Source: Escherichia coli 042
GTDB lineage: Bacteria > Pseudomonadota > Gammaproteobacteria > Enterobacterales > Enterobacteriaceae
Direction: 5' to 3' (one strand)
Length of the DNA: 64,000 nt
NCBI RefSeq assembly: GCF_000027125.1
Contig: NC_017626.1
Part shown: positions 3,551 through 53,941 of the stretch, piece by piece
Layout of the letters: each line of letters begins with the position of its first letter
How positions within the stretch are numbered: position 1 is the stretch's first letter
Made by a program: the position numbers and the translations under genes
Notes under the pieces: model-generated
The model's database searches: none
What the model was told of the DNA's origin: nothing
What the model saw: only the letters and a program-made list of their open reading frames with translations

Positions 3551-4369
3551 TTAAATCAGGTGGCTATAAATGAACCGGGCAATGCTGTCGGTGGTGTTAT
3601 CACCAATCACAATGTTGGCGCGCGCTTTTACCGCGTCATCGGCGTTGCCCATCGCCACGCCTGTACCAGCGGCTTCCAGCATACTGATATCATTAAAGTT
3701 ATCGCCGAATGCCACGACGTTTTCCATCGACCAACCTTGTGCCTCAACCCATTTCGTCAAACGTTTACCTTTGCTGTTGCCGCCGCGTGCAATATCAACC
3801 TGATCGTGCCAGGACCATTCACACTCCAGTCCCAGTTCATGTTCGACATGCTTACCAAAATGCTGCAATTGCGGCAGGTCATCGTGCGTCAGGGCGAACT
3901 TCCATACGGCGTTAACTTGTTGCGCCGTTTCAGCCAGAGAAGCGACTTGTGTGAAAGTCGGACGCTGTTCCGGCGGCAGGGTTTGCGCCCAGTTAGACGT
4001 GCGAATGACATGCCCGGTCGGGTGCTCATAGACCATTGCATCATCGACATACATCAGACCGTGAATGTGGTGTTCATTCAGCATCTCAATGAGTTGCAGG
4101 GCTTTATTAACGGGCATTGGGTCCGCTTCCAGCACGGTTTTTGCATGATAATCATACAAATAGGTGCCATTACAGCAAATAGCAGGTGTATCCAGCGCCA
4201 GCGCCTGATAAAAAGGATGAATAGCGACGTGATGGCGACCTGTGACGATGATTAATTGATAGCCTGCTTCGCGAGCGCGGGCCAGGGCTTCTATCGATGA
4301 TGGAAGCAAGGTCTTTTTCGGGGTCAATAAGGTGCCGTCTAAGTCGAGAGCAATCACGCGTGTGGTCAT
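3551..4369 (-). CDS. ybhA: HAD-family (Cof-like) sugar/pyridoxal phosphate phosphatase YbhA
   Basis: Track ORF trimmed to internal Met (MTTRVIALDLDGTLL, HAD motif I); 272 aa. Confidence 0.9.
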   Translation of the reverse strand: MTTRVIALDLDGTLLTPKKTLLPSSIEALARAREAGYQLIIVTGRHHVAIHPFYQALALDTPAICCNGTYLYDYHAKTVLEADPMPVNKALQLIEMLNEHHIHGLMYVDDAMVYEHPTGHVIRTSNWAQTLPPEQRPTFTQVASLAETAQQVNAVWKFALTHDDLPQLQHFGKHVEHELGLECEWSWHDQVDIARGGNSKGKRLTKWVEAQGWSMENVVAFGDNFNDISMLEAAGTGVAMGNADDAVKARANIVIGDNTTDSIARFIYSHLI

Positions 4370-4487
4370 GGCGTATTCCAGATTAAGGTTAAGAATTTTC
4401 TTCTGCGCGAATGGTACACCGATACCACTATCGGACAAAATTCTGCGTTTTAATTCAGCATTCACCGCCAAAAGCGACTAATTTTAG

Positions 4488-11770: not shown

Positions 11771-13054
11771 TTACTTCTTCGCCTCTGCAACCACTTTACT
11801 ACCCACGCCGCGGTTATTGTATTCCCACATGCGGTTGTAGTTAGTGTCATTCAGATTGCGTTGTATTTCGTCGCTATCGTCAACGCTGCCGGTGTTACCT
11901 GCGAATGGACGATTGGAAATCACCGCATCGGCCCACGGTTTCGCCGTGTTAAAACCTTCGTTGATGGCGCTATCACGGATCACCACCTGACCGTTGGTAT
12001 TGGCATCAACATCCAGCGAACGACCCAGTTGCGCCACGCCATCACCGGAAGCATTGAAACGGCTGTTTACGGCGAGGAAACCGTAATAGATGTTAGACAG
12101 CGTAGCCGGTGCAAACACATACGCTTCTTGCTGAGTACGTGAGTTCACCACGCGGAATTCGGTGTTATCGAACACCACTGCGCCGCGACCAGAAACGATA
12201 TCCACATCCCCTTCAATGTAACTGTTGGTCACCAGAGTACGCGGCTGACGGTTGGTTTCCAGACGGTTTTGCACACCACTGTTGGTGACAAAGAAGGTAT
12301 TTTGACGACCGAGAATGTTGACGTTATTGATCTGCACTTTGTCGCCATCAGTACGCAGTGCCACCGCCGGATGGTTACCTGCATCTACGCTATCGCCCAG
12401 CGTGTTTTCGATGGTCAGGTTTTGCAGTTGCAGGCCATTGTTTTGTGACCAGAAGACCGCAGAGCAGAGAACGCCGATACTGTCGCTGCGTTTGCTCTGG
12501 CAGCTATCGTACATATACCACGCTGGTTTACCTGGCATATATTTGCCGCGCGGGTTGACGTCATGACGCCAGTCGGCAGGGCTCATGCCCCCATCAAGGG
12601 AAAGCCCAATCTTCACATCAATCGGTTTTTCACCTGTACCGTACAGAGTAATTCCACCCGGAGCGGCAGGGACATATACCGTTCCCTGATACTCACCAGG
12701 CATCACGGCAATATACTGGCGCTTGTTGGTGCGCTTGATAATTGCCGCATCTACCGCCGCCTGAATCGTGGTATGCGTTACACCTTGAGTACCCGCCGGG
12801 CCGACAACAAAGTCAGGTTGCGCAGGCAGGGTAATCGGGGAAGGATTCCACGCTGCCGCACCTGGTGTCAGGGATGCAAAATAGTGTTGAGCATCGAAAT
12901 TCTGCGCTTCTTTTGCCGACAGAATCGGGCGAGAAGAGGTACCAGGCGCGGTTTGATCAGAAGGACGTTGATCGGGCGGTGTTGAGCTACAGGCGGTCAG
13001 CGTCACGCCAAAAGCCAATGCCAGCGCCAGACGGGAAACTGAAAATGTGTTCAC
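11771..13054 (-). CDS. ybhC: Outer-membrane lipoprotein YbhC, pectinesterase-like
   Basis: 427-aa ORF with lipoprotein signal LTAC; last chromosomal gene before attB-lambda. Confidence 0.9.
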   Translation of the reverse strand: MNTFSVSRLALALAFGVTLTACSSTPPDQRPSDQTAPGTSSRPILSAKEAQNFDAQHYFASLTPGAAAWNPSPITLPAQPDFVVGPAGTQGVTHTTIQAAVDAAIIKRTNKRQYIAVMPGEYQGTVYVPAAPGGITLYGTGEKPIDVKIGLSLDGGMSPADWRHDVNPRGKYMPGKPAWYMYDSCQSKRSDSIGVLCSAVFWSQNNGLQLQNLTIENTLGDSVDAGNHPAVALRTDGDKVQINNVNILGRQNTFFVTNSGVQNRLETNRQPRTLVTNSYIEGDVDIVSGRGAVVFDNTEFRVVNSRTQQEAYVFAPATLSNIYYGFLAVNSRFNASGDGVAQLGRSLDVDANTNGQVVIRDSAINEGFNTAKPWADAVISNRPFAGNTGSVDDSDEIQRNLNDTNYNRMWEYNNRGVGSKVVAEAKK

Positions 13055-13100
13055 AGGTTGCTCCGGGCTATGAAATAGAAAAATGAATCCGTTGAAGCCT

Positions 13101-13115
13101 GCTTTTTTATACTAA
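13101..13115. other. attL core (B-O-P') of lambda-type integration; P' arm follows to ~13188
   Basis: GCTTTTTTATACTAA followed by GTTGGCATTATAAAAAAGCATTGCTTATCAATTTGTTGCAACGAACAGGTCACTATCAGTCAAAATAAAATCATTATTTGATTTC, the recalled lambda P' arm. Confidence 0.95.
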
Positions 13116-13188
13116 GTTGGCATTATAAAAAAGCATTGCTTATCAATTTGTTGCAACGAACAGGTCACTATCAGTCAAAATAAAATCA

Positions 13189-14259
13189 TTATTTGATTTC
13201 AATTTTGTCCCACTCCCTGCCTCTGTCATCACGATACTGTGATGCCATGGTGTCCGACTTATGCCCGAGAAGATGTTGAGCAAACTTATCGCTTATCTGC
13301 TTCTCATAGAGTCTTGCAGACAAACTGCGCAACTCGTGAAATGTAGGCGGATCCCCTTCGAAGGAAAGACCTGATGCTTTTCGTGCGCGCATAAAATACC
13401 TTGATACTGTGCCGGATGAAAGCGGTTCACGACGAGTAGATGCAATTATGGTTTCTCCGCCAAGAATCTCTTTGCATTTATCAAGTGTTTCCTTCATTGA
13501 TATCCCGAGAGCATCAACATGCAATGTTGTAGGGATGGCAATTTTTACACCTGTTTTGCTTTGCTCGACATAAAGATATCCATCTACGATATCAGACCAC
13601 TTCATTTCGCATAAATCACCAACTCGCTGCCCGGTAACAACAGCCAGTTCCATTGCAAGTCTGAGCCAACATGGTGATGATTCTGCTGCTTGATAAATTT
13701 TCAGGTATTCGTCAGCCGTAAGTCTTGATCTCCTTACCTCTGATTTTGCTGCGCGAGTGGCAGCGACCGGGTTTGTTGTTATATGGCCTTCAGCTATTGC
13801 CTCTCGGAATGCATCGCTTAGTGTTGATCTGATTAACTTGGCTGACGCCGCCTTGCCCTCGTCTATGTATCCATTGAGCATTGCCGCAATTTCTTTTGTG
13901 GTGATGTTTTCAAGTGGAGCATCAGGCAGACCCCTCCTTATTGCTTTAATTTTGCTCATGTAATTTATGAGTGTCTTCTGCTTGATTCCTCTGTTGGCGA
14001 GGATTTTTTCGTAGCGATCAAGCCATGAATGTAACGTAACAGAATTATCACTGTTGATTCTCGCTGTCAGAGGCTTGTGTTTGTGTCCTGAAAATAACTC
14101 AATGTTGGCCTGTATAGCTTCAGTGATTGCTATCCTCCTGTCTCGGCCTAATCCAAACTCTTTACCCGTCCTTGGGTCCCTGTAGCAGTAATATCCATTG
14201 TTTCTTATATAAAGGTTAGGGGGTAAATCCCGGCGCTCATGACTTCGCCTTCTTCCCAT
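13189..14259 (-). CDS. int: Lambda integrase (tyrosine recombinase)
   Basis: 356 aa, MGRRRSHERRDLPPNLYIRNNGYYCYRDPRTGKEF..., essentially identical to recalled lambda Int. Confidence 0.97.
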   Translation of the reverse strand: MGRRRSHERRDLPPNLYIRNNGYYCYRDPRTGKEFGLGRDRRIAITEAIQANIELFSGHKHKPLTARINSDNSVTLHSWLDRYEKILANRGIKQKTLINYMSKIKAIRRGLPDAPLENITTKEIAAMLNGYIDEGKAASAKLIRSTLSDAFREAIAEGHITTNPVAATRAAKSEVRRSRLTADEYLKIYQAAESSPCWLRLAMELAVVTGQRVGDLCEMKWSDIVDGYLYVEQSKTGVKIAIPTTLHVDALGISMKETLDKCKEILGGETIIASTRREPLSSGTVSRYFMRARKASGLSFEGDPPTFHELRSLSARLYEKQISDKFAQHLLGHKSDTMASQYRDDRGREWDKIEIK

Positions 14260-14455
14260 TTCTGATCCTCTTCAAAAGGCTACCTGTTACTGGTCGATTT
14301 AAGTCAACCTTTACCGCTGATTCGTGGAACAGATACTCTCTTCCATCCTTAACCGGAGGAGGGAATATCCTGCATTCGCGCACCCATCGACGAACTGTTT
14401 CAAGGCTTCTTGGGCGCCGCTGGCGTGCGTTCCACTCCTGAAGTGTCAAGTACAT
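14237..14455 (-). CDS. xis: Lambda excisionase
   Basis: 72 aa, MYLTLQEWNARQRRPRSLETVRRWVRECRIFPPPVKDGREYLFHESAVKVDLNRP, matches recalled lambda Xis. Confidence 0.95.
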   Translation of the reverse strand: MYLTLQEWNARQRRPRSLETVRRWVRECRIFPPPVKDGREYLFHESAVKVDLNRPVTGSLLKRIRNGKKAKS

Positions 14456-14560
14456 CGCAAAGTCTCCGCAATTACACGCAAGAAAAGCCGCATTGATGCG
14501 GCGATGGTAGGTCTGGATATCTTGAGAAATGAACTGGCCTCATCGAGTGTGAGGCTGTGG

Positions 14561-14905
14561 TTAGTCCTTGCGTAGCTCACTGATTCTTCTGTAAGTCTCT
14601 GGTGCTTTGTTTCCGTGTATCTTCATTTCAGACTTCAACAGAGCAACGAGGGAATCCCATTCGTTGAGGATGCCTTTGAATGCCGGAACGCGCTTTGCAA
14701 CCTTGTCGAATGAATCTCTGATTTCTGGGATCTGCTCAACAAGTGCAACGCATCGTCGGAAATCGGCTGCGTCATGTGGAGCACCGAAGTGATGACCATA
14801 GATATTCTTTTTCAGTCCACATGCGATTGAGGCAAGAGTTGCGCTACTGATGCCGACATCGCCAGTTGATTGCCATTTCAAAACCTTCATAGCCAAATCT
14901 GACAT
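14561..14905 (-). CDS. Hypothetical protein (~114 aa) in the integrase-proximal accessory slot
   Basis: Track ORF trimmed to MSDLAMKVLKWQ...; preceded by RBS GGAGAC. Confidence 0.5.
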   Translation of the reverse strand: MSDLAMKVLKWQSTGDVGISSATLASIACGLKKNIYGHHFGAPHDAADFRRCVALVEQIPEIRDSFDKVAKRVPAFKGILNEWDSLVALLKSEMKIHGNKAPETYRRISELRKD

Positions 14906-14916
14906 TTCTTGTCTCC

Positions 14917-14940
14917 AATAAAAAACCGCCATCAGGCGGC
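14917..14940 (-). terminator. Rho-independent terminator immediately upstream of the 14905 start
   Basis: Minus-strand hairpin GCCGCCTGATGGCGG followed by TTTTTATT. Confidence 0.5.
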
Positions 14941-15005
14941 TTGGTGTTCTTTCAGTTCTTCAATTCGAATATTGGTTACATTGTTTTCATATATGAATAA
15001 ATAAA

Positions 15006-15218
15006 TTAGCTTTTTTCGTTGCCTTCGCTTTCTTTATTAATTTTAACAAACTCGTTTTTACCACGCTCTCCAAATGCGTCTTTAGAGTCGTTGTATCCGC
15101 AATCGCAGCACACATAATCTCCAGACCATCCACGCATTGTTTTTTCTTTTGCAATATTTCCAGAACCGCATTTTGGACAAGACATATCACTACCTCCAAA
15201 GCATGAGTGAGATGACAA
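15006..15218 (-). CDS. Small zinc-ribbon protein
   Basis: CPKCG...CCDCG four-cysteine motif; probable start at internal MSCPKCG. Confidence 0.45.
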   Translation of the reverse strand: MSSHSCFGGSDMSCPKCGSGNIAKEKTMRGWSGDYVCCDCGYNDSKDAFGERGKNEFVKINKESEGNEKS

Positions 15219-15281
15219 CGTAACATTGATTGGAGATTAACAATAGATTGCTGATGTAAAAGATATGTATAAGCTTCGCTT

Positions 15282-15986
15282 TCAAAGTGGAGGCTCTGGT
15301 AGCGGCATCCAGTGTGACGGCTCACATACCCCCTCAACACCGTTCATGTAAAAGAATTGAAATAACCCTTTACCTTTGTGAAACCCTACCATCTGCTCTT
15401 TTGTGTCTGAACAATAAACCAAAACATCTTCTTCGTTTGGCATTCGCTCACTACAGCTTATCCAACTATCCGGAGTTCCCGGAGAGTTGCCATTTACATC
15501 GAAGTTTGGCTCTGCGTCCTGAACCAGGAGAATGTAACCATTCTTGGCTGTATCAAGTTCTAACGCCTCGGTGACGGTGCCGAAATAGCGATTACCTAAA
15601 TCAGCATCACAAGTGCTTACATCAATGGAAACTTCCATGCCTTCGATTAATTCTGGCAAGTTGTAAGTTTGGCTTACAGGTTGGCTACCCTGAAGCATGG
15701 CGGCGCGGTGACACCAGATAATCCAGCCAAGCGCCATATCCCATGCCATGTATTCTCTATCGCCATTTTTTGCCCTACGGCGATCTACAGATTCCCCGAA
15801 ACGCTTCTCCATAAATAATTCATAGGCTGCTCGTTCATCCGATACTGCTGCCAGTGATGCCAGTGCAATTTTTAATGCGGTAAGCATGTTGTTTTGATCT
15901 TCATCGAGTCCGAACGGTATTTCATCCCGTGCTGACTCAATGCTGGTAATCGTGTTCTGTAACCATTCTTTGGTAAGAGTATTCAT
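15282..15986 (-). CDS. Phage protein with C-terminal DUF551-like domain
   Basis: C-terminal WISCSERMPNEED...HWMPLPEPP pattern recalled for DUF551 phage proteins. Confidence 0.5.
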   Translation of the reverse strand: MNTLTKEWLQNTITSIESARDEIPFGLDEDQNNMLTALKIALASLAAVSDERAAYELFMEKRFGESVDRRRAKNGDREYMAWDMALGWIIWCHRAAMLQGSQPVSQTYNLPELIEGMEVSIDVSTCDADLGNRYFGTVTEALELDTAKNGYILLVQDAEPNFDVNGNSPGTPDSWISCSERMPNEEDVLVYCSDTKEQMVGFHKGKGLFQFFYMNGVEGVCEPSHWMPLPEPPL

Positions 15987-15988
15987 AA

Positions 15989-16180
15989 CTATTTCACTTT
16001 AATCTCAATATTTCGCAGCTTTAGCTCTACTGGCAGGTCTGACTTTCCTGTTAATGCTAATGCGAGATTTTCAGGAGTAATGAGAGCAGTTATTGTTTTT
16101 CCCCTCGCCAGACGAATAATCATTCGTATCTCGCAATCGTCACATGCTCCCGGTCGAACAATTGAGATTTGTCCGTTCAT
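15989..16180 (-). CDS. Hypothetical small phage protein
   Basis: 63-aa ORF packed between neighbours in the same operon. Confidence 0.35.
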   Translation of the reverse strand: MNGQISIVRPGACDDCEIRMIIRLARGKTITALITPENLALALTGKSDLPVELKLRNIEIKVK

Positions 16181-16181
16181 C

Positions 16182-16808
16182 TCACTTCCCCTTCACACCA
16201 ATGTTGGCGGCGGCGCGCTCGGCTTCACTTTGTTCCCAAAACCACTTGTGAAGCGCCATAAGCTTTTCGTCAATCGGTGCATATTTGCGATTAAAGTAGG
16301 CCTGAGCATCTTTCTCAGATTCGTCCGGTAATTCGCCTGGGCCAAACAGTGTGTTATAAATCCATGCCAGTCCGCTTTTAGCGTCGCCAGTCGATTGCCA
16401 TTCGATAATGGCAGCCTGCATGACCAGAATGTTTTTCCCGATTAACAGGTCCAGTTCTTTGTACCGGTTGCGGATGTATGCATTCTCGCTTTGTAATTTT
16501 GCGTTGCGCTTCTCTGCGGCTTCCAGATCAACTCTCAGCTTCCCTACCGTTAGCGCAATATCCTCGTTCTCCTGGTCGCGGCGTTTGATGTATTGCTGGT
16601 TTCTTTCCCGTTCATCCAGTAGTGCCAGCACGGTTTCTGGTCCGGTCAGAAATTTGAAGGCGTTGAGCGCATCAATATCCACACCGTAATCCTTAAGTTC
16701 CTGTTCACTTAACAAATCATCATCAACTGGCAACATTAACAGGCGTTCCATTGCCGGAATTGCACGTTCTGCCGCCAGTCGCAGAGCCTGATAGTTAATC
16801 TCGCTCAC
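16182..16808 (-). CDS. Ead/Ea22-like early protein
   Basis: 208 aa, coiled-coil rich, position after xis; resembles Ea22-family proteins of lambdoid phages (from memory). Confidence 0.45.
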
Positions 16809-16988
16809 TGGTTGCCTCCTTTGCGCAACATCGCATTCAGATATTTGTTTTGATTCACTGATGGAAAAGAATTTCTCTTAAGCAATTCCTCTCTCGATGG
16901 CATTGGCTTTACGCGTTGGCGAATAATCATTTCTGCCGGAAGAATGCCGGGATTGTATGCAAGTCCTCTCATGGTAAATTCCTCTTTG

Positions 16989-17303
16989 TTAATTTATTCG
17001 TATGCCTGCTCTTTCTTCATCGAGTTTTTTTAGCTTGTATCGCATAGCTCTTACTGAATAAATTGAGCGGCAGGTTGCAATTGCTATTTCTTCTGCGGAG
17101 AACTTACCGAAAAGTGATACTTCGGCTCTTGTCCATCGTCTTCCACGAAGTCGGCTAACAATGTCAGCGCCAATCCTTGTTGCTTTCGCCATTACTGCTT
17201 TTTCAGTCCTTTCCAGTTTTTCAGCGATAACTTCAACTGGCATTGTCGCCGCCACTTCGCGCAAGAAATCGACTTCCCATTTCTCCCATGGAGTCTTTTT
17301 CAT
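16989..17303 (-). CDS. Hypothetical phage protein
   Basis: 104-aa ORF in early-left operon. Confidence 0.4.
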
Positions 17304-17314
17304 AGGCGATACCG

Positions 17315-17803
17315 TTATTTGATAAGAAGTGAAGGTTTCCCAACTTTGAGTTGAGCGCCGGGGATATTTATTCCTGCTTTTAGTTGGTGTTTGATTGCTA
17401 GTTTGTCGGCTTTAATTGTCGTTTCAAACTCAACGTATTCTTGAGGAAGGGCGCTTGAGTCGATGATTTCTACAGTTTCTGACGGTTTGCGGATTGTTAC
17501 CTGGTGAATACCTGCTCGAATCTTTTTCTTGCCAACCATTTCAAGCGATGACGCTATATATGATTTGATGCTGTCAATCTTATTTTGAATTACTGCGGCT
17601 CGCTCATTTAGTGACTTTGCCTCTTCCTTGAGGCGTTCAGCATAACCAGATTCATTTTTAATAATGGCGAGAAGTTGCTCTATTTTATCGGTAAATTCTC
17701 CTTCCATGCCTTCTATTGTGTCAGCAATCATCTCTGGCTCTAAATCTGAATCCATCAATTTTGCGTATTCATTGGCTATTTCATATAGTTTGCTCACTGG
17801 CAA
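17315..17803 (-). CDS. Gp157-like protein (RecT-associated family)
   Basis: 162 aa immediately downstream of recT; acidic coiled-coil protein of the type often adjacent to RecT/Erf. Confidence 0.4.
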   Translation of the reverse strand: MPVSKLYEIANEYAKLMDSDLEPEMIADTIEGMEGEFTDKIEQLLAIIKNESGYAERLKEEAKSLNERAAVIQNKIDSIKSYIASSLEMVGKKKIRAGIHQVTIRKPSETVEIIDSSALPQEYVEFETTIKADKLAIKHQLKAGINIPGAQLKVGKPSLLIK

Positions 17804-18692
17804 CCTCCAGTTTCGCTTTGCATTCTATGTAAATGGCTTGTACGTTCTGCTGCAATTTCATTCCAGATGTCAGGCGATATGCTTCTGCAAAATATCGCTT
17901 CAAATCATCCATGTTTTCTGCCTGAGCCATTTCATCGCAAAGAAGTTGTACTTTATCCATTATTTCCTGCTGGCGTTTCCGTTCATCTTCGCGGATATCT
18001 TCCTCTGATTTGTGCGGCATAACTGGTTCAGTCCACACACCTTCTTCTTCGTTTAGTACGTGAATAGCACTATCAAGACGTGATGCCTTAGGCCAATACT
18101 TGCTTGCACGCTTTACGACCGTCTTTCGCGCCATCTCATTCCAGTGATTTACCCATGGTCCTTTATCGCTGAATGCTGCCTTGCTTGTTTTCCTTACAGC
18201 CTCAATTTCAGCCAGACTCATCTCTTCCGTTAGATAATCACCTGCTGGCGTCTTAACTGTGCAGTAAACGCCAACGATATCACCACGATCACCGAAGGCG
18301 TTGTATTTATGGGTTGGTGCTTTATCAAGCCCGTTTGACTCATAGGTATCGTTAGCATGAACAAGTTTTGCCTGACCCCATGAGATAACACCAGACTCCA
18401 TTGCAATATGGAGCAATCCCATATAACTGATATCAAGGCAAACCATGCCGTCGCGCGGAACTAGATAAGCAAGTTTGCTGGCCGGGTTTAAGGTGATGCC
18501 GATCGCCGCAACATTGATGATGGCGTTCTGTGCGCTGGTTGGATTTGCCAGTGCCGTTTTAGCCAGGTAATCATTTTTCTGGAAATACTGAATTGCAAAC
18601 TGGCTTTCCTTAGCCCATGTCACCGTCTGTTCAGTCAATGCTCCGCAGAATAACTGCTCCTGCTGTTTAACGAATTCAACGATATTGCTCAT
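17781..18692 (-). CDS. recT: RecT-family single-strand annealing recombinase
   Basis: 303 aa with the recalled RecT pattern GPWVNHWNEMARKTVVKRASKYWP. Confidence 0.8.
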   Translation of the reverse strand: MSNIVEFVKQQEQLFCGALTEQTVTWAKESQFAIQYFQKNDYLAKTALANPTSAQNAIINVAAIGITLNPASKLAYLVPRDGMVCLDISYMGLLHIAMESGVISWGQAKLVHANDTYESNGLDKAPTHKYNAFGDRGDIVGVYCTVKTPAGDYLTEEMSLAEIEAVRKTSKAAFSDKGPWVNHWNEMARKTVVKRASKYWPKASRLDSAIHVLNEEEGVWTEPVMPHKSEEDIREDERKRQQEIMDKVQLLCDEMAQAENMDDLKRYFAEAYRLTSGMKLQQNVQAIYIECKAKLEVASEQTI

Positions 18693-19000
18693 GCAGCTTC
18701 TCCATAAATATGTCTGCGTTTGAATATTGCGAAGGCATATTCAGCCTTAACTCTTTCGGTTATTGCATCCCAGAACCATTCAGCGGCTTTTTCCTGATAG
18801 TTACAGTCATCATCTTCCAGCCAGTCGATAGCGTCCTTAGTGTGTTCATCTGGTTTATATGAGCGAAGCATTTCGCTTATTGGGTCGCAACGTTTGCAGA
18901 GGCGATCAACTTCACTGTTGATTCGTTCGTAATCTTCATCAGTAAAACTTGCGATTATTTGCGATATTTCACGCTTATCATTCAGAGTCAGAATCATCAT
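18689..19000 (-). CDS. Hypothetical early protein
   Basis: 103-aa ORF overlapping recT start codon. Confidence 0.4.
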   Translation of the reverse strand: MMILTLNDKREISQIIASFTDEDYERINSEVDRLCKRCDPISEMLRSYKPDEHTKDAIDWLEDDDCNYQEKAAEWFWDAITERVKAEYAFAIFKRRHIYGEAA

Positions 19001-19547
19001 CTTTCTCCTGTTCTTTGTGCTGATTGAGCATTTCTTTCATCTGACGAATGAATTCTTCGTCTGACCAGTTATCTGTAAAACTCATTTCCTGCGATACCAC
19101 GGAAGGTTGATCGCTGATTTCATCGCTTTATTTGCTTCAAGCCACATTTTTGAATCACCAATAAATCTGGCTATTACTGCTTTGTTCTGTGCAGCACGAA
19201 GCATCTGGTGATTGATGGCTATTTCATTGCGCATAACGCCTCCAGTTGTTTCTTTGCTGCTCTGATTAATTGTTTAACTCGGCGTGATAATTCAGATTCG
19301 TGCGGGTAGAAAGCGGACATGACGCCGCTACCCGCGAGCTGAAAGTGCATCATGGGTAACTCCTTATATTTGATTGCATAACGAAAACGCCTCGAATGAA
19401 GCGTTATTGGTATGCATATAAAAAGGCCCTCACACTGGAGGGCAAAGAAGATTTCCAATAATCAGAACAAGTCGGCTCCTGTTTAGTTACGAGCGACATT
19501 GCTCCGTGTATTCACTCGTTGGAATGAATACACAGTGCTTATTCGTA

Positions 19548-20018
19548 CTAATAAAATACCCAATTTTCTGTTTCTTGGTTGTGTCCAAAGTTATATTCAA
19601 TATCTGGTGTTGATGTATCAATATTCTTCATCCCATCAACAAGAGTTGATACAACAGCCAAATCTTGTTCTATTCTCATTAAATGGTATTTCTTCCGGCG
19701 CAATAAACTTTCAATAGCAAGTTTCTTCGTTGGGAATGCAAAAGATCTTTCTGCATTTTTTGCTACTTTCTTAATTGCATATCTATTTCTCCTTTGTTTC
19801 CATTCCTGTAACCACTGATTTGGTGCTGGTTTAAAATTAACAATCCAATGCGCAGGAACCAACCATGCATAATGCTCTGTCTGATGAAAAGCTATATATT
19901 GAAGTGCGAATATTTTTATCCCATCTTCTTCAACTGTCGCCTGGAATCTCCAGAAAACAGGCATTCCATCATGTTCAGTTTCTGATTCAGGAAAAGGTAC
20001 GCTCCATGATTTTGTCAT
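19548..20018 (-). CDS. Hypothetical protein, low-GC accessory gene upstream of N
   Basis: 156-aa ORF in AT-rich DNA; no recognised family. Confidence 0.5.
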   Translation of the reverse strand: MTKSWSVPFPESETEHDGMPVFWRFQATVEEDGIKIFALQYIAFHQTEHYAWLVPAHWIVNFKPAPNQWLQEWKQRRNRYAIKKVAKNAERSFAFPTKKLAIESLLRRKKYHLMRIEQDLAVVSTLVDGMKNIDTSTPDIEYNFGHNQETENWVFY

Positions 20019-20026
20019 ATCTCACC

Positions 20027-20353
20027 TCAAATAAGTGGTTTGCTGCCTAATTTCATTTTCTGTCGACCAACACAAGTCACACCAATTTCACTGCGTGGCT
20101 TGCTGTACCATGTGCGCTGATTCTTGCGCTCAATACGTTGCAGGTTGCTTTCAATCTGTTCGTGGTATTCAGCCAGCACCGTAAGGTCTATCGGATTCAG
20201 TGCGCTTTCTACTCGTGATTTCGGTTTGCGATTCAGCGAGAGAATAGGGCGGTTAACTGGCTTTGCGCTTACCCCAACCAACAGGGGATTTGCTGCTTTC
20301 CATTGAGCCTGTTTCTCTGCGCGACGTTCGCGGCGGCGTGTTTGTGCATCCAT
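20027..20353 (-). CDS. N: Antitermination protein N
   Basis: Track ORF trimmed to MDAQTRRRERRAEKQAQWKAANPLLVGVSAKPVNRPILSL..., matches recalled lambda N; 108 aa. Confidence 0.92.
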   Translation of the reverse strand: MDAQTRRRERRAEKQAQWKAANPLLVGVSAKPVNRPILSLNRKPKSRVESALNPIDLTVLAEYHEQIESNLQRIERKNQRTWYSKPRSEIGVTCVGRQKMKLGSKPLI

Positions 20354-20463
20354 CTGGATTCTCCTGTCAGTTAGCTTTGAGTAACGCGCCGTGATGCTTA
20401 TCTCCACGGTTGCTGTCTTGCAGCTGCATTTCGCGCTACTCAAAGCTTTCTGCTTTGAATGCT

Positions 20464-20494
20464 GCCCTTCTTCAGGGCTTAATTTTTAAGAGCG
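20464..20494 (-). promoter_or_regulatory. nutL (boxA + boxB)
   Basis: Minus-strand CGCTCTTA (boxA) and GCCCTGAAGAAGGGC (boxB hairpin) between pL and N. Confidence 0.85.
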
Positions 20495-20538
20495 TCACCT
20501 TCATGGTGGTCAGTGCGTCCTGCTGATGGCTTAAAATT

Positions 20539-20606
20539 ACAAGGAAGATTGTATGTTGTAAACAAGAAATATTGTAAAAAAGAGCGTGAAAAACAAATTC
20601 CATTGT
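20539..20606 (-). promoter_or_regulatory. OL operators / pL region, phage 434 type
   Basis: Three 14-bp sites ACAAGGAAGATTGT (20539-20552), ACAAGAAATATTGT (20562-20575), ACAAATTCCATTGT (20593-20606). Confidence 0.75.
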
Positions 20607-20656
20607 TTTTAAACGGAAAATAGTTTGTTTTTTGGTTGTCGAAATCGAGGTGAGGA

Positions 20657-22009
<1,353 letters not shown>

Positions 22010-22017
22010 GACATTCC

Positions 22018-22049
22018 CGCTCTTACACATCCCAGCCCTGAAAAAGGGC
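22018..22049 (+). promoter_or_regulatory. nutR (boxA + boxB)
   Basis: CGCTCTTA then GCCCTGAAAAAGGGC hairpin downstream of cro. Confidence 0.85.
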
Positions 22050-53926: not shown

Positions 53927-53941
53927 GCTTTTTTATACTAA
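53927..53941. other. attR core (P-O-B'); lambda P arm lies at ~53770-53926
   Basis: Second copy of GCTTTTTTATACTAA followed by bacterial CTTGAGCG; upstream CAGGTCACTAATACCATCTAAGTAGTTGATTCATAGTGACTGGATATGTTGTGTTTT matches recalled lambda P arm. Confidence 0.95.

Follow-up and report, generated by a model that had tools for sequence, protein, structure and literature searches.

A probable exo-xis/ea accessory block in a lambdoid prophage of Escherichia coli 042, with a conserved terminator-like hairpin before ORF114

The genes lying between the recombination genes and the integrase of a lambdoid prophage raise two questions at this locus: whether they include exclusion or anti-defence functions, as a preliminary description of this DNA had suggested, and how a gene placed directly behind a terminator-like hairpin could be expressed. 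The window, the whole stretch of 64,000 nucleotides of E. coli 042 that we analysed, holds a lambdoid prophage of 40.8 kb inserted at lambda attB. From RecT and Gp157, which are the recombination genes of this prophage, down to ORF114, xis and int, all genes are on the minus strand, and the cluster sits between the recombination genes and xis-int. The ORFs found there are the following.

14561-14905, minus strand: 114-aa ORF (ORF114).
15006-15185, minus strand: eaG, encoding a 59-aa Cys4 zinc ribbon (CxxC...CxxC).
15282-15986, minus strand: DUF551 protein of 234 aa, EaA-like (PF04448, E=2e-18).
15989-16180, minus strand: 63-aa ORF, the HkaF of HK620 (90% identity; phrog_1222).
16182-16808, minus strand: Ead/Ea22-like protein of 208 aa (PF13935, E=1.4e-28).
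16805-16972, minus strand: DUF2737 ORF of 55 aa, the orf56 of P22 and HkaI of HK620, belonging to the same cluster.
16989-17303, minus strand: 104-aa ORF with a weak helix-turn-helix-like match.

The five minus-strand ORFs of the preliminary description, from ORF114 to the Ea22-like gene, were all confirmed at their coordinates, as were the zinc-ribbon, DUF551 and Ea22-like identities, and the assignment to an integrase-proximal variable accessory region of a lambdoid phage was supported. The ORFs between xis and the recombination genes number seven, however, and not five, the DUF2737 ORF and the 104-aa ORF having been omitted. The 104-aa ORF (16989-17303) occupies the position of abc2 in HK620, HK022 and P22. 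From DUF2737 to DUF551 the genes are close-packed or overlapping, and the stop of the DUF2737 ORF overlaps the GTG start of the Ea22-like gene (GTGA).

The Ea22-like protein scored 100.7 bits against PF13935, whose gathering cutoff is 27; over its N-terminal ~110 aa it shares 53% identity with lambda Ea22, and its C-terminal domain is of another type. Ea22 proteins have been described as sharing an N-terminal coiled coil, carrying exchangeable C-terminal domains and favouring lysogeny (PMC10834534, PMC7093339). The DUF551 protein reached 67.4 bits against a PF04448 cutoff of 22 over residues 174-233, and resembles P22 EaA over its C-terminal 70 aa only (39%). EaG is 100% identical to HK620 HkaD and 93% identical to P22 EaG. 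We rejected EaG as a Lar restriction-alleviation protein (PF14354), as it scored 23.1 bits, below the cutoff of 28.6, in a match confined to the generic zinc-ribbon part. Each of the five proteins has a catalogued counterpart among the ea or exo-xis proteins of lambdoid phages or P22, the outcome that the preliminary description had linked to the absence of defence functions, provided that the matching proteins were characterised; catalogued they all are, but most of them are themselves uncharacterised. P22 and HK620 have their genes in syntenic order. We conclude that the region is probably an ordinary accessory block of the exo-xis (lambda) or ea (P22) type, at the promoter-distal end of the pL operon in a lambdoid prophage of mosaic make-up. 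The cluster is of an already known kind, in which early-left accessory genes catalogued from lambdoid phages and P22 appear in one more mosaic combination, and its five proteins are non-essential accessory products.

The boundaries and control elements of the prophage are of lambda type.

13101-13115: att core, repeated at 53927-53941; these lambda att cores bound the prophage.
13189-14259, minus strand: int, lambda-type.
14237-14455, minus strand: xis, lambda-type.
14468-14481, minus strand: cII box TTGC-N6-TTGC of a lambda-type pI promoter, read from the sequence and overlapping the xis leader.
~20027-20353: N, lambda-type.
20464-20478, minus strand: nutL boxB GCCCTGAAGAAGGGC, with boxA CGCTCTTAA immediately upstream.

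Upstream of the cluster lie the lambda-type N, nutL boxA/boxB, kil and cIII, and nutR is also present in the prophage. The cII box of pI has the same sequence in lambda and is annotated in phage 434. A consensus promoter scan, from which weak or activator-dependent promoters could escape, found no sigma-70-like promoter on the minus strand between 13230 and 17694, and an Rfam scan of 13000-21000 returned no RNA family.

In lambda, the exo-xis genes (ea8.5, ea22, orf61, orf63, orf60a and ORF55) lie on the same strand and at the same place between the recombination genes and xis, with the same pL/N control elements, an identical hairpin and linker, and the related Ea22 N-terminal domain. The lambda exo-xis region is transcribed from pL (PMC4195576). 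The present prophage differs from lambda in having eaG in place of ORF55/ea8.5 and RecT/Gp157 in place of exo/bet/gam; lambda moreover is without ORF114, its hairpin abutting pI directly and overlapping the stop codon of ORF55. The ea region of P22 and HK620 (orf56, eaD, eaI, eaA, eaG, eaC; hkaD-hkaI) has the gene order seen here, together with highly similar EaG and HkaF proteins, the same hairpin after eaG, and the same RBS and first two codons in the gene that follows the hairpin. The slot of ORF114 holds EaC in P22, a protein unrelated to ORF114, and is empty in HK620.

The genes occupy the minus strand and would be read from pL, in the order DUF2737, Ea22/EaD-like, HkaF-like, EaA-like DUF551, EaG, hairpin, ORF114, hairpin, pI, xis and int. 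ORF114 thus comes last in the cluster, ahead of xis; the terminator that had been placed before the first gene lies within the cluster, between eaG and ORF114. The elements around ORF114 are, in the direction of transcription:

14943-14979, minus strand: linker on the 5' side of the hairpin, conserved, and here a remnant of non-coding DNA behind eaG.
14917-14942, minus strand: intrinsic-terminator-like hairpin, with the stem at 14942-14923 and the T-tract at 14922-14917.
14913-14916, minus strand: Shine-Dalgarno GGAG of ORF114, 7 nt before the ATG at 14905.
14537-14555, minus strand: stem-loop GCCTCACACTCGATGAGGC, just past the ORF114 stop and without a T-tract.
14483-14502, minus strand: second terminator-like hairpin GCCGCATCAATGCGGC followed by TTTT, directly upstream of pI, with the stem at 14502-14487.

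The hairpin and T-tract reported 12 nt before the ORF114 start are real, but the RBS is not contained in the hairpin: the GGAG lies just 3' of the T-tract, outside it. The 8-bp stem (14942-14923) has 5 G-C pairs and a UGAU loop and is followed by T6; it folds at -13 kcal/mol (z = -3.8), and none of 200 shuffles folds equally well. It was the first site listed in a terminator scan of 13000-20000, and it has the make-up of an intrinsic terminator, with a G+C-rich stem-loop running straight into a T-tract on the transcribed strand. Lambda, P22, HK620 and E. coli A39 have the identical hairpin, which is also conserved in 434 and HK022 and recurs unchanged in at least 120 IMG/VR contigs; its identity in lambda, P22, HK620 and these contigs is far beyond chance. 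Base for base, it is the lambda hairpin just upstream of pI/xis, which two programs predicted as the minus-strand terminator t5-lambda (PMC4195576). The leader ATTGGAGACAA(G/T)AAATGTCAG of ORF114 also precedes eaC in P22, and the counterpart of the linker 14943-14979 in lambda, 434 and HK022 is the 3' end of the ORF55 coding sequence.

Considering that no minus-strand promoter-like site was found and that the prophage carries a lambda-type N and nutL, dependence on antitermination is the most reasonable reading, and N-dependent read-through is the likely route of ORF114 expression. Polymerase from pL would be modified by N at nutL and would read through the hairpin terminators, with ORF114, xis and int expressed as delayed-early genes, while unmodified polymerase would stop at the hairpins. 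Such a stop would insulate ORF114, xis and int from stray upstream transcription and would keep ORF114 silent in the lysogen. The ORF114 cassette, placed between the conserved hairpin and pI as in 434 and HK022, would have brought the second terminator along.

The second hairpin (14502-14487) folds at -10.5 kcal/mol (z -4.2), and the stem-loop at 14555-14537, which is kept together with the ORF114 module, at -8.6 kcal/mol (z -2.4); as both follow ORF114, the gene is bracketed by hairpins. The integrase promoter and the t'I terminator of lambda and 434 were reportedly described in 1983 by Benedik, Mascarenhas and Campbell, in what is probably the reference given in the 434 record. Across phages, ORF114 is usually followed on its 3' side by a second hairpin and T-tract just before the RBS of the next gene, and three hairpin sequences were seen there. 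The second hairpin of our prophage is labelled a terminator in the record of phage 434 (which cites PMID 6305007). At 95-100% identity, ORF114 is found upstream of xis with the same flanking hairpins in 434, HK022, mEp043, mEp213 and Stx phages such as 1717; in 434 and HK022 the gene upstream of the module is ORF55, whereas here it is eaG. Phage morons are likewise single genes at a module junction with their own terminator behind. We rejected ORF114 as a moron: it has a terminator downstream (14502-14487), but no promoter-like site of its own and a terminator 12 nt before its start, so that, unlike morons, it would depend on the antiterminated transcript of the operon.

Comparison of 134 loci revealed what may follow the hairpin: the next gene was the lambda xis in 39, the HK620 TorI-type xis in 38, ORF114 in 34, a 71-aa membrane ORF in 6, EaC in 4 and a 94-aa ORF in 3. 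Upstream lies ORF55 or eaG, in every combination, and divergence starts at the end of the T-tract. The hairpin marks a conserved mosaic junction before six alternative genes, and its ~60-nt linker gives the lambdoid phages a sharply defined junction, at which alternative downstream modules may be exchanged by homologous recombination. That the linker is almost identical from phage to phage could be due to recent recombination instead of functional selection.

This joining of upstream and downstream modules in all combinations also fits a different reading, in which the hairpin is not mainly a leftward terminator, but is kept for terminating a rightward antisense RNA, like the aI RNA of P22, or simply as a recombination linker. 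Indeed the P22 record, unlike our reading, gives the same exact hairpin sequence as the terminator of the antisense aI RNA on the opposite strand, and the terminator scan lists the plus-strand reading as terminator-like too. The plus-strand tail (CTTGGTGTTC) is, however, T-poor compared with the T6 on the minus-strand side, the promoter scan found no plus-strand promoter-like site in or near ORF114, and the two predictions for the lambda copy are for the minus strand. Moreover, hairpins of other sequence, all with a T-tract on the minus strand, stand at the equivalent place before other xis genes, which argues for selection on leftward termination. We regard the antisense or linker reading as unlikely, although the assignment in P22 suggests that the main role of the hairpin may differ between phages.

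The product of the gene behind the hairpin is the ORF114 of phage 434 and the gp32 of HK022, is 100% identical in mEp043 and matches phrog_1229 (E=7e-52). It has been on record since the int-xis entries of 434 and HK022 (M60848, X51962) and has never been studied, no experimental report having been found in the literature, and is a reasonable target for knockout or structure work. Profile and structure searches, which the preliminary description had proposed, yielded no Pfam, NCBIfam, PADLOC or PDB relative of ORF114, and a 61-sequence family profile found nothing among PDB sequences and Pfam. Its AF2 model (pLDDT 93.5) is all-helical, with seven helices, and no structural relative of this fold was found in the PDB.

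The ORF114 family is large, comprising 2814 clusters at 50% identity (E<=1e-3), and is without a curated model or a solved fold. Its invariant residues are W11, S20, P43, D45, D48, R51, C52 and W83, and the protein is net basic (charges counted by eye). Thirty multi-domain members were scanned, and Pfam domains above cutoff appeared in one only, a CCA-adding enzyme with an HD domain; the extensions are unrelated and do not cluster, except for tandem ORF114 repeats and one shared C-terminal extension. Family members lie near int in temperate phages, adjoin RdgC in Nonanavirus-like phages, and also occur in phages whose sampled regions have no integrase gene; in Vibrio phage K73 the relative is a lone, oppositely oriented gene amid tail genes. 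A homolog of 33% identity in Mannheimia phage 1152AP2 is arranged as ORF114 is here, in the order terminator, RBS, gene, terminator, RBS, small ORF, int. No constant partner gene emerged across the phage contexts, and the metagenomic contexts, on short contigs, gave no functional clue. Within the window, a family HMM found nothing beyond ORF114 in the six-frame translation. A kinship with the Ea22 C-terminal domain through a common WQSTGD was rejected, the match spanning 9 residues only. ORF114, a small basic all-helical protein, is most likely a protein- or nucleic-acid-binding modulator with a role early in lytic growth.

A more specific proposal sees ORF114 as a portable, terminator-bracketed anti-defence or host-takeover cassette that antitermination restricts to lytic growth. 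The slot between the hairpin and xis does carry alternative cargo (ORF114, EaC, the 71-aa membrane ORF, or nothing), hairpins bracket ORF114 in enterobacterial phages as well as in the Mannheimia phage, and the size of the family, its invariant residues, its occurrence outside int regions (regions without integrase, K73 tail genes) and its joining to many unrelated extensions, once to the CCA-adding enzyme, all point in this direction. On the other hand, the database searches and the literature offered nothing in its favour, the net basic charge argues against a DNA mimic, and the fusion evidence comes from a single protein. The lambda anti-restriction gene ral adjoins N; ORF114, some 5.7 kb from pL, would be late among the early genes, unlike ral. 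We hold this proposal to be doubtful, a little more so than the antisense or linker reading of the hairpin. There is an equally slim chance that ORF114 is the founding, uncurated member of a widespread phage domain with S20, D45, D48, R51 and C52 as its active or binding site, terminator-bracketed in lambdoids and the Mannheimia phage, made only from antiterminated transcripts, and serving as an early host-takeover or anti-defence effector.

The exclusion or anti-defence content expected for the cluster as a whole found no credible homology. PADLOC returned a single match, to 'DpdH' (E=6e-37), which falls in the C-terminal domain of the Ea22-like protein; it gave nothing for the other four proteins, and no other Dpd component was hit. 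We rejected this match as a probable labelling artefact: all 1176 homologs of the domain are prophage Ea22-like proteins, and the genuine DpdH has been described as belonging to a BrxC-like factor. That a superinfection-exclusion or defence gene of the cluster is expressed from the prophage is highly improbable, its support consisting of the 'DpdH' match and the reputation that variable prophage regions have in general. Against it stand these homologs, the BrxC-like nature of DpdH, the missing Dpd partners, the lack of a promoter-like site, the upstream terminators and the location of the genes in the repressed pL operon; a gene such as ORF114, which terminators would shut off and which has no promoter-like site of its own, is a poor candidate for such exclusion. 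The PADLOC 'DpdH' model (PDLC02890) appears to catch the C-terminal domains of prophage Ea22 proteins, and could give false defence calls.

The region upstream of xis is a standard lambdoid exo-xis/ea region, already known as such, whose mosaic junction carries the lambda t5 hairpin, and its preliminary description was essentially correct apart from small errors. It belongs to a lambdoid prophage of 40.8 kb that occupies lambda attB and has the following features:

end at 13054: ybhC-like host gene
13101-13115 and 53927-53941: repeated 15-bp att core, GCTTTTTTATACTAA
13189-14259, minus: lambda-type int
14237-14455, minus: lambda-type xis
14502-14487, minus: second hairpin plus T-tract, abutting the cII box of the pI promoter
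14555-14537, minus: stem-loop after ORF114
14561-14905, minus: ORF114 (114 aa)
14916-14913, minus: GGAG ribosome-binding site (RBS) of ORF114
14942-14923, minus: hairpin stem (8 pairs, 5 of them G-C; loop UGAU), followed by a T6 tract
15006-15185, minus: zinc ribbon (59 aa)
15282-15986, minus: DUF551 protein (234 aa)
15989-16180, minus: 63-aa ORF
16182-16808, minus: Ea22-like protein (208 aa)
16805-16972: DUF2737 ORF, between cluster and recombination genes
16989-17303: 104-aa ORF, between cluster and recombination genes
beyond the cluster, farther along the minus strand: RecT/Gp157 recombination module
beyond the cluster, minus: kil and cIII
minus: lambda-type N, with boxA and an exact nutL boxB (20464-20478)
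22035-22049: nutR

The stretch from about 19000 on, through N, cI, cro, cII, O, P and the nin region, matches HK446 and HK97-like phages. In this lambdoid layout the cluster forms the distal end, seen from the promoter, of the leftward early (pL) operon.

All five ORFs of the cluster are present as first described, their family labels hold, and every one of them is a catalogued phage gene. In Pfam, the DUF551 protein matched PF04448 (E=2e-18) and the Ea22-like protein PF13935 (Ead/Ea22, E=1.4e-28), the Cys4 zinc ribbon matched the Lar and HVO_2753 zinc-finger models only below threshold, and the 114-aa and 63-aa ORFs had no match. The zinc ribbon is EaG (100% identical to HK620 HkaD, 93% to P22 EaG), the 63-aa ORF is HK620 HkaF (90% identical), and the DUF551 protein resembles P22 EaA in its C-terminal 70 residues only. 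The Ea22-like protein shares 53% identity with lambda Ea22 over its N-terminal ~110 residues and carries a C-terminal domain of another kind. Ea22 proteins have a conserved coiled-coil N-terminus and swappable C-terminal domains (PMC10834534), and the make-up of the 208-aa protein fits this picture.

Five ORFs had been counted between xis and the recombination genes; these five stand and the count does not, the DUF2737 and 104-aa ORFs having been left out. The gene order (DUF2737, EaD/Ea22, small ORF, EaA-like, EaG, hairpin, the slot before xis, xis, int) equals that of P22 and HK620, and from DUF2737 through DUF551 neighbouring genes overlap or lie 1-2 nt apart, as expected for one operon. 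The lambda counterpart is the region called exo-xis, described in the literature as pL-driven, non-essential and affecting lysogenisation and induction. The 104-aa ORF belongs to phrog_11492, with a weak helix-turn-helix-like match and no PADLOC match; abc2 (anti-RecBCD) holds its position in HK620, HK022 and P22, whereas here it adjoins a Gp157/RecT module in place of Erf or Exo/Bet.

The hairpin upstream of ORF114 is real. It was the first site listed in a terminator scan of 13000-20000 and folds at -13 kcal/mol (z = -3.8), with none of 200 shuffles folding as well. The RBS, previously placed inside it, falls just after the T-tract. Lambda, HK620, E. coli A39 and P22 all carry the identical sequence, AACACCAAGCCGCCTGATGGCGGTTTTTT; the lambda copy overlaps the ORF55 stop codon and runs directly into the pI cII box and then xis. 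This exact lambda sequence is the predicted terminator t5-lambda, called by both Erpin and RNAmotif (PMC4195576). A caveat to the reading as a leftward terminator is a possible role in antisense RNA: in the P22 record this hairpin belongs to aI, an antisense RNA of the opposite strand. The plus-strand tail, however, has few Ts, and the scan gave no plus-strand promoter-like site nearby.

To survey the junction, IMG/VR was scanned with an exact 29-mer (at least 120 contigs) and reference phages were added. Among the matches listed and the reference phages, divergence starts where the T-tract ends, and the gene that follows is lambda xis (39 loci), the HK620 TorI-type xis (38), ORF114 (34), a 71-aa membrane ORF (6), P22 EaC (4) or a 94-aa ORF (3). 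Upstream lies either ORF55 or eaG, and every combination of upstream and downstream modules was seen. The shared hairpin, the divergence past its T-tract and the free combination of modules indicate that the hairpin and its ~60-nt linker are a conserved mosaic junction. ORF114, which has its RBS and first two codons in common with eaC, is one of several cargos that alternate in this slot, between hairpin and xis. The ~37 nt preceding the hairpin on its 5' side (window 14943-14979) correspond to the 3' end of lambda ORF55 (lambda stretch compared, 1719-1886), which has its TGA stop in the hairpin loop. In the window this stretch is a non-coding remnant after eaG, and therefore the recombination that joined eaG to the linker cut inside ORF55.

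On the transcribed strand ORF114, proposed to be the cluster's first gene, comes last, directly before xis. Only 17 nt separate the T-tract from its ATG, and a promoter scan of the minus strand found no sigma-70-like site from 13230 to 17694, so there is no room for an ORF114 promoter after the terminator. The suggested dependence on antitermination is thus the likely route of expression, and the presence of lambda N and nutL leads us to infer N-dependent read-through. Most likely, by analogy with established lambda biology, pL polymerase modified by N would pass both hairpins and express three delayed-early genes, ORF114, xis and int. Polymerase not modified by N would halt at the hairpins, which would shield xis and int from stray transcription and keep ORF114 silent in the lysogen. 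Two more minus-strand terminator-like hairpins near cIII (19386-19443) resemble the tL2 cluster annotated in HK620, and fit a pL operon studded with terminators for N to override.

In most ORF114 loci the gene's own hairpin plus T-tract lies directly ahead of the RBS of the gene that follows. Hairpins of three different sequences occupy this position, ahead of several different downstream genes, and the second hairpin of the window is annotated as a terminator in the phage 434 record. Because unlike sequences share shape and place, this argues that leftward termination in front of xis may be under selection. A distant parallel supports this: the Pasteurellaceae phage vB_MhS_1152AP2 of Mannheimia (3940-4420) has an ORF114 homolog, 33% identical, in the same layout of terminator, RBS, gene, terminator, RBS, small ORF and integrase.

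The ORF114 family, never studied, is the only loose end deserving a bench experiment. The protein is ORF114 of phage 434 (M60848) and HK022 gp32, is 100% identical in mEp043, and also occurs in mEp213, several Stx phages, g341c and thousands of E. coli genome entries, always annotated as hypothetical. An exhaustive profile search collected 2814 clusters (50% identity) at E<=1e-3 and 623 at E<=1e-10, with W11, S20, P43, D45, D48, R51, C52 and W83 invariant. ORF114 is net basic by count from its sequence, and AlphaFold gave a confident seven-helix model (pLDDT 93.5, pTM 0.87) with no solved relative (best Foldseek E against the PDB, 4.3). No match came from a profile search of PDB sequences or from Pfam, NCBIfam and PADLOC models, and BFVD matches were uncharacterised phage proteins only. 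Homologs occur in 277 phage records, with hosts including Vibrio, Salmonella, Klebsiella, Mannheimia, Aeromonas and Arthrobacter. The gene neighbourhood varies: int is close by in temperate phages, RdgC is the neighbour in Nonanavirus-like phages, and in one Vibrio phage the homolog stands among tail genes.

The extensions that the domain carries differ widely and are uninformative, except for some tandem duplications (three proteins among P0067, P0102, P0141 and P0168) and one fusion, P0168, in which the domain follows the C-terminus of a CCA-adding enzyme/poly(A) polymerase that has an HD domain. This fusion is a lone and weak pointer to a connection with tRNA or RNA 3' ends. Some database entries (cluster P0001, 138 members) hold a 123-aa version starting at ATG 14932 in the hairpin loop; the GGAG RBS and the leader common to P22 eaC support 14905 as the probable start.

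The idea that the cluster carries exclusion or anti-defence genes found no backing: PADLOC had no match for four of the five proteins, and we distrust the fifth. This is DpdH (PDLC02890, E=6e-37), matched by residues 96-197 of the Ea22-like protein; all 1176 homologs of this domain are prophage Ea22-like proteins (one bearing the old label enterohemolysin 2), no other Dpd component is present, and a BrxC-like DpdH is ill-suited to a 127-position model, DpdH/DpdI being BrxC-like according to a recent preprint. The PDLC02890 label looks unreliable and could yield false defence calls in prophages. EaG was likewise rejected as Lar, the resemblance being below the Pfam cutoff and confined to the zinc ribbon. 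ORF114 might still have an early-acting anti-defence role, at a low probability.

Two ORFs elsewhere in the prophage were also considered. The N-cIII interval, which holds ral and sieB in lambda and an anti-restriction gene in HK446, here holds a 156-aa ORF (19548-20018; phrog_1636, E=1e-111) with no PADLOC match. A 158-aa ORF (20657-21133) with a signal-peptide-like N-terminus and no PADLOC match directly follows the cI-like repressor (21058-21690) and shares its strand; it matches phrog_2651 and has as its positional counterpart HK446 gp39, the annotation of which notes similarity to Sf6 gene 38. Because rexA/rexB take this position in lambda, a function expressed from the prophage is more plausible for the 158-aa ORF than for any gene of the cluster.
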